This document shows positions 9,073 to 25,938 of a stretch of 25,938 nt of DNA, one piece after another (positions within the stretch are counted from its first letter, which is position 1; each line of letters begins with the position of its first letter). The translations under genes were made by a program, and so were the position numbers. Source of the DNA: Phycisphaerae bacterium (GTDB lineage: Bacteria; Planctomycetota; Phycisphaerae; UBA1845); contig JBKJYI010000099.1 of NCBI GenBank assembly GCA_046715855.1, positions 1-25,938 of the forward strand, in the 5' to 3' direction. The notes under the pieces are model-generated. The model saw only the letters and a list, made by a program, of their open reading frames with translations. It was not told where the DNA came from and did no database searches.

Positions 9073-9104
9073 GGGTGCCATGGCCAAGCGCAGCGCCGCC
9101 ATGG
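9073..9104 (+). repeat. REP-like family B, GGGTGCCATGGCCAAGCGCAGCGCCGCCATGG
   Basis: CCATGGC/GCCATGG stem. Other copies at 10061-10082 (partial), 12178-12208, 24363-24403 (degenerate) and 24415-24445 (inverted). Confidence 0.85.
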
Positions 9105-10032: not shown

Positions 10033-10082
10033 TGTCATTCTGAGCGCAGCGAAGAATCTCGGGTGCCATGGCCAAGCGCAGC
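10033..10082 (+). repeat. Composite REP-like unit: family C (TGTCATTCTGAGCGCAGCGAAGAATCTC) fused to family B
   Basis: The same C-then-B junction recurs at 12150-12208. Confidence 0.8.
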
Positions 10083-10121
10083 CCGTTTGTTTTTCGCGCC
10101 CCCCATCTTAAACTCATATCC

Positions 10122-10901: not shown

Positions 10902-11028
10902 GATGTGGCGACTTGGTGATATGGTGATGTATCCTTATGCTATTTAGTGCCGAGTGGCTACGGCCTAAAGGACACAGTCGTGCGTTGCTATACATCGCCA
11001 AATCACCACTTCACCAAATCACCACATA
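10902..11028. repeat. Inverted pair of octamer tandem arrays (GATNTGGT / ACCANATC) around a 57-nt core with a hairpin
   Basis: Left arm GATGTGGC GACTTGGT GATATGGT GATGTAT (10902-10932). Right arm ATACATC GCCAAATC ACCACTTC ACCAAATC ACCACATA (10990-11028). Confidence 0.75.
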
Positions 11029-12020: not shown

Positions 12021-12280
12021 CTCGAGCCCCGGCATTCATGCCCGGAGATTCGAAAAAAGCGCCGCGATCGTTTGGTTAGATGGGAGGGCGAGGCTCCTGC
12101 CGAGCCGGTAGGGAATAATGCGGTCAAGTTTTGTCATTCTGAGCGAAGCGTCATTCTGAGCGAAGCGAAGAATCTCAGGTGCCATGGCCAAGCGCAGCGC
12201 CGCCATGGAGGACCCACCCAACCGAAAAATGAATGATCCCCGTAAGTGGACAATGCCCGAGCCCGGCATTCATGCCGGGC
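12021..12280. repeat. Cluster of REP-like elements: A (12021-12045), D GGGAGGGCGAGGCTCCTGCCGAGCC (12082-12106), C with internal duplication (12132-12176), B (12178-12208), A (12256-12280)
   Basis: Direct comparison with copies elsewhere in the window. D has a GGCTC/GAGCC stem, is single-copy in this window, and is assigned on structure and recollection of planctomycete repeats. Confidence 0.75.
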
Positions 12281-12323: not shown

Positions 12324-12387
12324 TTGCCTAGCTGCCTTATTGCCTCGTTGCCTCGTTGCCTGGTTGCCTGGTTGCCTGGTTGCCTTC
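12324..12387. repeat. Octamer tandem array (T/C)TGCCT(C/G)G, 8 units
   Basis: TTGCCTAG CTGCCTTA TTGCCTCG TTGCCTCG TTGCCTGG TTGCCTGG TTGCCTGG TTGCCTTC. The same octamer appears in reverse orientation at 25896-25938. Confidence 0.9.
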
Positions 12388-23489: not shown

Positions 23490-24263
23490 TCACATGCGTC
23501 GAATCGACGCCGCGGCGGAGATAATAGCAAGAAAGTCGTCCGCTGCCAAACAGGCCCCGCCAACCAGTGCCCCGTCGATATCGGGCTGACCCAGCAACTC
23601 CGCCGCGTTGCCGGGCTTGACGCTGCCACCGTAGAGGATGCGAATTTGGGACGCCACCGCGTTCCCATACATCTTTCCGAGCCAGCGGCGAATGTAGGCG
23701 TGAACTTCCTGGGCTTGATTCGGGGTAGCCGTCTTGCCGGTACCGATGGCCCAGACCGGCTCATAGGCGACGATCAAGCGTGCTGCGGACACTTCGCGGT
23801 CCAGCACTTCGAGAAGTTGGTTTTGGATGATGGACTCCGTGTTGCCAGCCTCGCGCTCAGCCAGCGTTTCCCCAACGCAGTAGATGACTTGCAGGCCGCC
23901 CGCGACCACAGCGCGGACTTTTCGGGCGAGCAATGCGTTGGCTTCATGGAAGAACTGGCGGCGTTCGCTGTGGCCGATCAGGGCGTGAGTGCAGCCCGTG
24001 TCCGCGAGCATGGCTACAGACACTTCCCCGGTGAAAGCTCCTTCTTTCTCAAAGTGCGCGTTTTGCGCGCCGAGCTTGATGGGGGTGCCGGCAATGGCCT
24101 TGGCCATCGGAAACAACAGTTGAAAGGGCGGACAAATCAAGACTTCGACTTCGGCGAGGTTGGCAATGCGCGACAATCCACGGACGATGCCCTCGACCAG
24201 CTCTCGCGCCGGGGCCAGCGTCTTGTACATCTTCCAGTTCCCGGCAATCAACTTTTTCCGCAT
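23490..24263 (-). CDS. tpiA: Triosephosphate isomerase
   Basis: AGNWKM, GAFTGEVS, IGHSERR, AYEPVWAIGTG, YGGSVK and DGALVGGA. Confidence 0.97.
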   Translation of the reverse strand: MRKKLIAGNWKMYKTLAPARELVEGIVRGLSRIANLAEVEVLICPPFQLLFPMAKAIAGTPIKLGAQNAHFEKEGAFTGEVSVAMLADTGCTHALIGHSERRQFFHEANALLARKVRAVVAGGLQVIYCVGETLAEREAGNTESIIQNQLLEVLDREVSAARLIVAYEPVWAIGTGKTATPNQAQEVHAYIRRWLGKMYGNAVASQIRILYGGSVKPGNAAELLGQPDIDGALVGGACLAADDFLAIISAAASIRRM

Positions 24264-24289
24264 GAAGACCTCAAACCAGGAAACTGCTC

Positions 24290-24542
24290 ATCCGCAGATT
24301 GCGCAGAGTTGCGCAGTTTTTATGGGAGTCAAAGAATAGGGTGCTGGTATGAAGTGCAGATCGGGTGCCATGCCCAAGCCCAGCCTCATCGGGCGCCGGC
24401 ATGAATAGCAAGAGCATGGCGGCGCTTCGCTAGGCCATGGCACCCCTTATATTCAAACCATACCAATACCCAGAATAGTTGCTGCGTATTTGATCGCTTG
24501 AATCCAGGACTGAATCTGCGTAAATCTGCGTAATTTGCGGAT
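24290..24542. repeat. 30-bp imperfect inverted repeats built from CGCAGATT-type units, bounding the tpiA-accC intergenic element
   Basis: 24290-24319 vs the reverse complement of 24513-24542: 25/30 identical. Confidence 0.8.
24339..24471. mobile_element. MITE-like 133-bp insertion with 13-bp terminal inverted repeats and 6-bp target-site duplication
   Basis: TIRs GGGTGCTGGTATG (24339-24351) and CATACCAATACCC (24459-24471), 11/13 complementary. AGAATA directly repeated at 24333-24338 and 24472-24477. It contains an inverted pair of family B repeats. Confidence 0.65.
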
Positions 24543-24545
24543 TCA

Positions 24546-25883
24546 TCAAAACGTTCTTTCCACAAAGCCGGTGTCGATTTCGCCGGAGAGCCAGTCCGGA
24601 TGTTCCATGACGCGGCGCAAAAACGGGATCGTGGTCTTCAGCGGCTCGATGGTAAACTCGCGCAACGCCCGCTGCATGCACCGAATGGCGTCCATCCGCG
24701 TGGGCTGGTGGACGATGAGCTTGGCCACCAGCGAATCATACTTCGGCGAAATCCTGATCCCCTCGTGCGCGAAGGTATCCACGCGCACTCCGTGTCCGCC
24801 GGGCGGACGATATTTTTTAATCGCTCCCGCGCAGGGGCGGAAACGCTCGTCGGGGTCTTCAGCGTTGATGCGGCATTCGATGGCGTGCCCGTGGAATACA
24901 ATTTGCTTTTGTGCCAAACCCAGCGGCTCTCCGGCTGCCACTCGAATCTGAGCCTTGATCAAATCAATTCCCGATACCATTTCACTGACCGGGTGTTCGA
25001 CCTGAATCCGGGTATTCACTTCGATGAAATAGAATCGCCCTTTGTTGTCCACCAGAAATTCGACCGTCCCCGCGTTGCTGTAGTTCGACGCCTTGGCCAG
25101 CTTCACCGCAGCCGCGCAAAGATCGGCCCGGACGCGCGGGGTAATGCCCGGCGACGGCGATTCCTCGACCAGCTTCTGGTGCCGCCGCTGCAAGGTGCAA
25201 TCGCGCTCGCCCAGGTGAATCACGTTGCCATGATGATCGCCGAGAATCTGCACTTCGACGTGGCGGGGGCGTTCGATGAATCGCTCGATATAGACCGCGG
25301 AATTATTGAACGCGCCGCCGGCCTCCTGTCGAGCCTGCTTGAGCTGCGCTATCAAATCCGTCTTATCGTAGACGACGCGCATACCGCGCCCGCCGCCGCC
25401 GGCTGACGCCTTGATGATGATCGGAAATCCGACGCTCTCGGCAATGCCGAGCGTTTCGTTGTCGTCTTCGATGACGCCGTCGCTGCCGGGGACCACCGGG
25501 ACTTTCGCCTTCTTCGCGGCGATTCTGGCCGAGGCCTTGTCACCCAGAGTTCGCATTGAATCCGCGCTGGGACCGATGAATTCCAGATTTGAGGCCCGGC
25601 ATTTTTCCGCGAAAGCCGCGTTTTCCGCCAGAAAACCGTAACCGGGATGAATCGCGTCGGCACCGCTGACTTCGGCAGCAGCGATGATCCGATCGCTCTT
25701 AAGATAGCTGTCGCGTGGTGCTGCGGAACCGATGCAAATGGCGCGATCGGCCAGTTGAAGGTATTCCCCGCCCCGGTCTTCCTCCGAAAACACGCACACG
25801 GATTCGACGTTGAGCTCGCGGCAGGCGCGGATGATCCGCAGCGCGATTTCTCCCCGATTAGCGATCAGAATGCGTCGGAACAT
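24546..25883 (-). CDS. accC: Acetyl-CoA carboxylase, biotin carboxylase subunit
   Basis: [56 protein letters not shown] and ECRINAED. About 445 aa stand-alone BC domain. Confidence 0.93.
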
Positions 25884-25895
25884 GATTCAAAGGAA

Positions 25896-25938
25896 GAGGC
25901 AACCAGGCAACGAGGCAACGAGGCAACGAGGCAATGAG
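25896..25938. repeat. Octamer tandem array (G/C)AGGCAAC, at least 5 units, running off the window end
   Basis: GAGGCAAC CAGGCAAC GAGGCAAC GAGGCAAC GAGGCAAT GAG. This is the reverse complement of the 12324-12387 unit and ends 12 nt before the accC ATG. Confidence 0.9.

Follow-up and report, generated by a model that had tools for sequence, protein, structure and literature searches.

Nested inverted repeats between accC and tpiA of an uncultured soil planctomycete: an IS1-type miniature element with a REP-type core, probably set into an older intercistronic hairpin

The accC-tpiA spacer and its three layers

The stretch of DNA considered here (the window) is one entire contig of 25,938 nucleotides (JBKJYI010000099.1) from a Phycisphaerae bacterium, represented by a metagenome-assembled genome (MAG) of 587 contigs, 3.18 Mb and 58.5% G+C that is 75% complete; the sequencing runs in which the stretch occurs come from soil metagenomes. 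Our subject is the 282-bp spacer at 24264-24545, which separates accC, the 5' gene (biotin carboxylase, 24546..25883, minus strand; Pfam Biotin_carb_N, CPSase_L_D2 and Biotin_carb_C, with homologs named acetyl-CoA carboxylase biotin carboxylase), from tpiA, the 3' gene (triosephosphate isomerase, 23490..24263, minus strand; Pfam TIM, E 7e-94). The gene order is accC, tpiA, secG and yicC, all on the minus strand and head to tail. The spacer holds three inverted repeats, one within the other, and all of them lie where a sequence-only reading of the window had placed them: an outer pair of arms (24290-24319 / 24513-24542, 25 of 30 positions complementary), a middle repeat (24339-24351 / 24459-24471, 11 of 13) and an inner one (24363-24384 / 24424-24445, 22 nt at 82%, the outermost 10 nt perfect). 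Every layer belongs to a genome-wide family, and these are not chance patterns: the segment 24320-24490 returns 138 nhmmer matches in the same genome, and the motif of the outer arms 24, versus none with a reversed control. The stretch is real and tidy, yet what it offers is a variation on bacterial repeats of known kinds. We consider it probable that it records two events, an old hairpin and the later entry into its loop of an IS1-type MITE (a miniature transposable element with inverted repeats) whose core is a doublet of repetitive extragenic palindromes (REPs).

The named homologs of this AccC (72-77% identity) belong to Planctomycetota, and most of them to Phycisphaerae. Closer relatives were gathered through their AccC homologs, and these are L151 and L152 (97% identity), L153 (95%) and G001 (92%). 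As this is a contig of a MAG, misjoining through repeats has to be weighed as an explanation of the whole arrangement: many of the 587 contigs end in these very repeats, and the left junction of the element is bridged by no read-derived contig. Against this, the element is framed by an 8-bp duplication. As accC and tpiA are adjacent in all four relatives, and as a 151-nt contig from the best-holding run crosses the right junction and agrees with it throughout, the contig has not been misjoined, and we give an assembly artefact scarcely any credence.

The middle element and its assignment to the IS1 family

The nhmmer matches in the genome split into a long class, corresponding to 24339-24471, and a short class, corresponding to 24360-24446. 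When the long copies are aligned with their flanks, similarity ends at GGTGCTGG on one side and at CCAGTACC on the other, and a direct repeat frames most of the copies. Across 25 copies bounded by terminal inverted repeats (TIRs), flank identity is 0.615 at a length of 8 bp versus 0.14-0.33 at all other lengths from 4 to 11, and the two flanks agree at 6 or more of the 8 positions in 13 of the 25 copies, compared to a mean of 0.24 and a maximum of 3 in 2000 shuffles of the pairs. This sharp register sets the window copy at 24340-24470, and its target-site duplication at 24332..24339 (AAGAATAG) and 24471..24478 (CAGAATAG), identical at 7 of 8 positions. An element of 133 bp with a 6-bp duplication had been proposed: the element and its 11-of-13 repeat stand, while its limits and size give way to 131 bp and its duplication to 8 bp. 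The TIRs, delimited by alignment of the long copies and by pattern search, are about 20 nt long, start with GGTGCTG and are kept across the long copies; in the window the left one is GGTGCTGGTATGAAGTGCAG (24340..24359, plus strand), and the right one (24446..24470, minus strand) starts, as reverse complement, with GGTATTGGTATGGTTTGAA. Two subfamilies, of about 130 and about 110 bp, are present in the genome, and the window copy belongs to the former. The TIR-bounded copies number about 25, at 88-95% identity, and the sequence of the duplication varies from copy to copy. Copies with different flanking duplications are what the sequence-only reading had suggested looking for, and its DDE-type MITE is borne out by the TIRs, the copy number and the 8-bp duplication: the 131-bp unit is a true DDE-type MITE, inserted by a staggered cut.

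As to the enzyme, the TIR pattern is present in 17 of 279 genomes of the order. One of these, G241, carries two perfect TIRs 2240 bp apart (C400, 316-2555; L053) that share 7-8 bases outside both ends, giving an 8-bp flanking repeat, GTATTTCG, if the first G of the TIR is included. Between them lie a 279-aa single open reading frame (ORF) and a Gp49/HigB-like/HTH_3 gene pair, which has the look of toxin-antitoxin passengers. The 279-aa protein matches Pfam DDE_Tnp_IS1 (PF03400) at 31.5 bits (curated cut-off 24.1), and it has thousands of homologs, the named ones of which, at NCBI and JGI, are called IS1 family transposase. The 3' end of such a transposase gene adjoins the same TIR at two further loci (G239:C527 and G239:C420) and in a remnant (G028:C14). 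An insertion sequence (IS) with the ends of the MITE, another item on the list of suggested checks, is thus found in relatives and not in the genome of the window itself. The first 18-19 nt of the right TIR of the MITE match the right end of the G241 element, and both ends of that element are matched. The ends of the MITE, GGTGCTG and GGTACTG, with an 8-bp duplication, fit the IS1 family (GGnnnTG, 8-9 bp). Ends of the form GGnnnTG are common to IS1 and IS6 (PMC6807381); Pfam models of IS6 and of IS66 find nothing in the window's genome, G001 or G028, and those of IS256 nothing in the window's genome. Judging from the ends and the duplication, it appears that the MITE can be assigned to the IS1 family; its core, of REP type, is unusual and exchangeable.

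Other candidates were considered and rejected. The TIRs do not match at an ISL3 gene (C499) or at IS1595 genes (C15; G001:C1). TIR-like 12-15-mers close to the ends of contigs C44 and C84 come without a transposase ORF, and metagenome relatives of the G241 transposase, at 43-55% identity, have different ends.

The likeness to IS1 and to other MITEs of DDE-type ISs is one of ends, 8-bp duplication, small size, non-coding content and multiple copies, and there are differences. The G241 transposase is a distant relative of the classical ones and is encoded by one ORF, without the InsA/InsB frameshift of the two-ORF arrangement; this fits the single-ORF subgroup of IS1 in ISfinder. The interior of the MITE is no IS leftover; it is a resident REP-type doublet and varies among the genomes that share the TIRs. 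Comparable too are the mobile insertion cassettes and transporter ISs, TIR-bounded elements in which IS ends carry foreign DNA that is moved in trans, as with the passengers of the G241 element; the passenger of the MITE, however, is a non-coding repeat and not a gene.

The REP-type doublet at the core

The core of the MITE consists of a 41-nt unit L (24363..24403, plus strand), itself an imperfect hairpin with an internal stem, a spacer of 11 nt (AATAGCAAGAG, 24404..24414) and a 31-nt unit R (24415..24445, plus strand), the latter being the 'family B' repeat of the sequence-only reading. R is approximately the reverse complement of L, and an extra small hairpin is present only in L. The same layout, with a spacer of 11-12 nt, makes up the short class of matches. 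Profile searches of the genome find 137 L and 146 R units (283 in all), 200 of which pair into 100 L-R doublets, and the spacer measures 11-12 nt in 57 of these. No TIR accompanies 64 of the doublets, one TIR accompanies 21, and both accompany 15. The free doublets have unrelated flanks and nearly random spacers (31% identity) next to L and R units that are about 89% identical; those borne by MITEs have a common spacer (65% identity), and in every long copy of the MITE the doublet sits at the same internal position. The pattern in the 64 free doublets, of a spacer fixed in length and random in sequence, with a few spacer subfamilies such as CAGYCSGTGCAM, deserves mention of its own: plain copying followed by neutral decay fails to explain it.

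Since every MITE copy contains the doublet, the doublet must have reached this site together with the MITE, so that the three stacked elements proposed from sequence alone come down to at most two events here. The original proposal would have a mobile foldback element enter first, then the MITE, then the doublet. It draws on the multi-copy nature of all three layers and on REP-type units being known as targets and neighbours of ISs (PMC3184786); it is countered by the constant position and related spacers of the doublet in the long MITE copies, and by outer arms that lack a duplication and are orthologous in three relatives. We hold it to be very improbable.

The distribution over genomes separates the two components further. 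Units of L and R type occur in other genera (G017, G018, G024 and G031) as singlets, pairs and tandem arrays, the R-type ones being 92-97% identical to those here, and the TIR pattern was not found in these four genomes. Conversely, the same TIRs, with perfect 8-bp duplications, bound a 90-bp MITE in G028 and a MITE of about 100 bp in G001, and the cores of these differ. The core motif of G028 has 116 matches there versus 28 for the TIR, and the core of G001 is found at 27 loci versus 14 TIR matches. With TIR and core so separately distributed, the most economical account is a MITE with REP cargo, as had been suggested: all copies of the MITE contain the doublet, which is also found 64 times without TIRs and follows a different distribution from the TIR. 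Judging by its copies, the REP doublet is an integral part of the MITE family and has a larger existence of its own. REP-type repeats and TIR-bounded MITEs are usually held to be separate classes with separate enzymes, and in this case the former are carried by the latter as cargo; the same ends with different resident repeats offer a concrete route by which hairpin repeats may spread without an enzyme of their own. The core motif of G028, GAGCCGCGACCGTNAGGGAGYGG, is itself scattered over several genomes (116 matches in G028, 50 in G241, 28 in G001 and 21 in G000, the window's own).

Whether L and R are REPs in the strict sense depends on the features considered. They are short imperfect palindromes, present in hundreds of intergenic copies, most of which are paired in inverted orientation with a constant distance between them, the others being single or in tandem arrays, with units far better conserved than the spacer between them, all of which recalls the REPINs (Bertels and Rainey, 2011; PMC3116915) and the bacterial interspersed mosaic elements. 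On the other hand, a REP is tagged at one end by GTAG or CGTC (PMC3733652), and the units here begin with GGGTG(C/G)CATG, with a GGGTG tag instead; the paired units are unequal (41 versus 31 nt); and about a third of the L-R pairs lie inside a TIR-bounded MITE with a duplication, whereas REPs are stated to show no target duplication (PMC3184786). An association with a REP-associated tyrosine transposase (RAYT), also raised from sequence alone, was looked for and not found: none of the four Y1_Tnp genes in this incomplete genome is near L or R units or flanked by them.

These data also bear on whether the 131-bp unit is instead a longer REPIN moved by a RAYT, that is by an HUH enzyme, its TIRs and flanking repeats being part of the palindrome or due to chance. 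The presence of four Y1_Tnp genes and of a core with the fixed 11-12-nt spacing of REPINs would suit such an origin. However, HUH transposition of the IS200/IS605 type does not yield a target duplication like the one here, with its sharp 8-bp register; an IS1-family DDE gene lies between these same ends; none of the Y1 genes has L or R units at its flanks; and the one locus with a RAYT-like arrangement has different hairpins. We regard this origin as very improbable indeed. The locus in question, in the window's own genome (G000:C320, 1540-2300), has a Y1_Tnp gene (1749-2090) with two further hairpins, GTCCCGTAGGGAC and CCCAGCGATTCATCGCTGGG, repeated in inverted orientation on either side, a RAYT-like layout with its own low-copy REP family.

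Other traces of the family in the window are single R-type units in three more spacers (9073-9103, 10059-10083 and 12178-12207), and the hairpin families beside these units share the loop AAGCG(A/C)AGCGCC. Pairing between L and R showed no covariation signal at their variable S position, with 46 cases complementary and 42 not.

The outer arms and the history of the site

The outer layer is not as well understood as the MITE. Each arm consists of three 9-10-bp units of CGCAGATT type (Tandem Repeats Finder period 10): the arm at 24513..24542 adjoins the accC stop codon, its 10-bp units being of AATCTGCG type, and the arm at 24290..24319 lies 27 nt upstream of the tpiA start. The genome holds about 12 paired and about 10 single arms. 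All of the pairs converge, have the tip ATCCGCAG on the outside and enclose unrelated loops of 20-60 nt, a foldback layout in which inverted arms of tandem units surround a variable intergenic loop; none of the approximately 12 pairs has a flanking duplication. Some genera of the order have the motif in abundance and others lack it, and a literature search by arm sequence returned primer matches only. In L151, L152 and G001 the arms are at the same site, immediately behind the accC stop and a short way ahead of tpiA, with no MITE. Their identity to the window is 23-26 of 30 for the arm next to accC and 24-27 for the other (77-90%), compared to 54-57% at four-fold sites of accC, and the loops are unalignable. 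In L153 the same position is occupied by an unrelated, perfect 17-bp hairpin.

The outer layer had been read as a non-autonomous mobile element. The lack of a duplication, the orthologous position in three relatives and the conservation of the arms far above neutral sites do not agree with this, and no evidence of mobility turned up. The position and the conservation make the arms look, as far as the alignments tell, like a maintained intercistronic hairpin. By the same comparison the arms appear to be older than the MITE, the hairpin predating the split of these lineages, while the MITE seems to be private to the lineage of the window. An individual case in G018 (C1, 407400-408500; L066) has a PDDEXK_3 (GxxExxY) gene inside a convergent pair of CGCAGATT arms, with more arms head to head on both sides; a general tie of the arms to such genes was rejected, as only 1 of 6 genes showed it.

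Folding of the spacer gives -101.7 kcal/mol, with a z of about -3.2. Once the MITE and one copy of the duplication are taken out of the window sequence, its arms pair in the minimum-energy fold, and they do so in L151 and L152 as well. REPs in enterobacterial operons act on the transcript as stems, and by analogy the outer hairpin may be a maintained stem acting on the accC-tpiA transcript. An extended version of this idea would have selection act on the whole quasi-palindrome of about 250 nt as a regulatory RNA or terminator of the operon, with the MITE co-opted in place. The fold and its z would favor this, as would the presence of some strong hairpin at this position in all five lineages compared. 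On the other side, the MITE is missing from all four relatives, so that conservation extends to there being a hairpin and no further; the spacer shows no terminator-like T run and no promoter-like site, and an Rfam search of the spacer and its neighbourhood gave nothing but a chance snoRNA match. We think this version improbable.

The main rival on arm function is that the arms are arrays of sites for a DNA-binding protein, three per arm at helical spacing, and not an RNA hairpin. The period of 9-10 bp, the conservation of the unit sequence in many genera of the order and the approximately 10 single-arm loci, unexplained by a hairpin function, all speak for this reading. Paired arms that are always convergent around variable spacers speak against it, as do the replacement of the arms by an unrelated hairpin in L153 and the occurrence of the same inverted layout in arrays of quite different units; no candidate protein was identified. 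Binding sites are in our estimate a rather unlikely explanation, while one to be kept in view.

As for the order of events, four relatives lack a MITE between accC and tpiA, and so the anticipated empty site is seen at the level of the locus only; the exact empty-site allele was not found, as the diverged loop hides the unduplicated sequence. The two-event account would start from an old hairpin between accC and tpiA, a member of an order-wide repeat family, with one arm of three CGCAGATT units of 9-10 bp in tandem and the other their reverse complement. The hairpin would most likely act on the operon mRNA as a stable stem, perhaps as a barrier to 3' exonucleases or as a cleavage site that uncouples the two genes. 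The second event would be the insertion of the 131-bp MITE into the hairpin loop, moved in trans by a DDE transposase of the IS1 family, encoded by a single ORF, that would recognise ends of about 18 bp beginning with GGnnnTG and make staggered cuts, hence the 8-bp duplication. Earlier, an ancestor of the MITE subfamily would have captured a doublet of the genome's commonest REP-type hairpins, which then spread with the MITE, the same TIR 'chassis' carrying other resident hairpin repeats in the two related genomes. The insertion was probably tolerated because of its position in the loop and because a strong hairpin was retained. With only 2 of 22 MITE copies between inverted flanks, the nesting at this site would be incidental, and a preference of the MITE for hairpin loops was rejected on the same count. 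A 39-codon ORF that is regained on removal of the MITE was also rejected, being on the strand opposite to the genes and unconserved in G001.

Several observations weigh against the two-event account. The best NCBIfam model for the G241 protein is indeed IS1, at 59 bits, which is under its cut-off of 100. No transposase-bearing element with these TIRs (GGTGCTGGTATG ends) was found in the window's genome (an incomplete one, as said) or in G001, and the only homolog in the former, an IS1-like paralog (C353, 37% identity), is without inverted ends. MITE-borne and free units share one consensus, with no separate clade, and a doublet may instead have inserted into a bare MITE. In the present sequence of the window the arms are unpaired in the minimum-energy fold, and the core of the MITE forms the dominant stem. 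The conservation of the arms could instead reflect a DNA-binding protein or homogenisation among repeats. The exact pre-insertion sequence had 0 matches in a pattern scan of metagenome contigs, and the soil-run reads, in the form of low-depth contigs only, gave no bridging piece and no joint skipping the MITE.

A broader proposition would be that the IS1-type TIR chassis recurrently captures resident REP-type hairpins, and that the outer arms represent an undescribed, selected class of Phycisphaerae hairpins with a role in the processing or stability of operon mRNA. We put it forward tentatively, as possible and less than likely. Three different cores are seen in three genomes; if the proposition is true, repeats supposed to depend on HUH enzymes or on no enzyme are cross-mobilised by a DDE transposase, and it would add undescribed intercistronic hairpins built of tandem 8-10-bp units. 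The organism is an uncultured soil planctomycete, and no long-standing open question is touched directly. The outer arms may still serve as a clean natural experiment, in which the arms are conserved, the loops are free to vary and one relative has a hairpin of unrelated sequence, and through which the function of such arrays could become testable.

The nearest parallel to the arms may be the STRR sequences (repetitive, with short units in tandem) of heterocystous cyanobacteria, reportedly tandem heptamers between genes described by Mazel and colleagues in 1990 and by Vioque in 1997 (listed in PMC7593598). Both are arrays of tandem 7-10-bp units in non-coding DNA, with many families per genome, and in both some arrays form inverted pairs that extend helices. 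The arrays here differ in belonging to Planctomycetota, in having units of 9-10 bp with a fixed outer tip, ATCCGCAG, and in the arm pair being held at one orthologous intercistronic site across species.

Arrays of this general kind abound. The genome has 481 tandem arrays of 7-11-bp units in its 3.18 Mb, at least 15 of which form inverted pairs, and other families of tandem units show the same inverted layout as the outer arms; the commonest units are AGGCAACA/GAGGCAAC, AAAGTTC and AATCGAC. In the window, arrays are found at 10904-10935 / 10992-11027, at 12324-12385 and at 25896-25938; one spacer is framed by (GATNTGGT)n and its complement, and (GAGGCAAC)n lies immediately upstream of accC. 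In L153 the accB-accC spacer (2195-2505) has the full inverted pair, with five copies of AGGCAACN after accB and four of GTTGCCTS just before accC. It corresponds to the half-array with which the window ends, and is another array hairpin of this operon that is orthologous.

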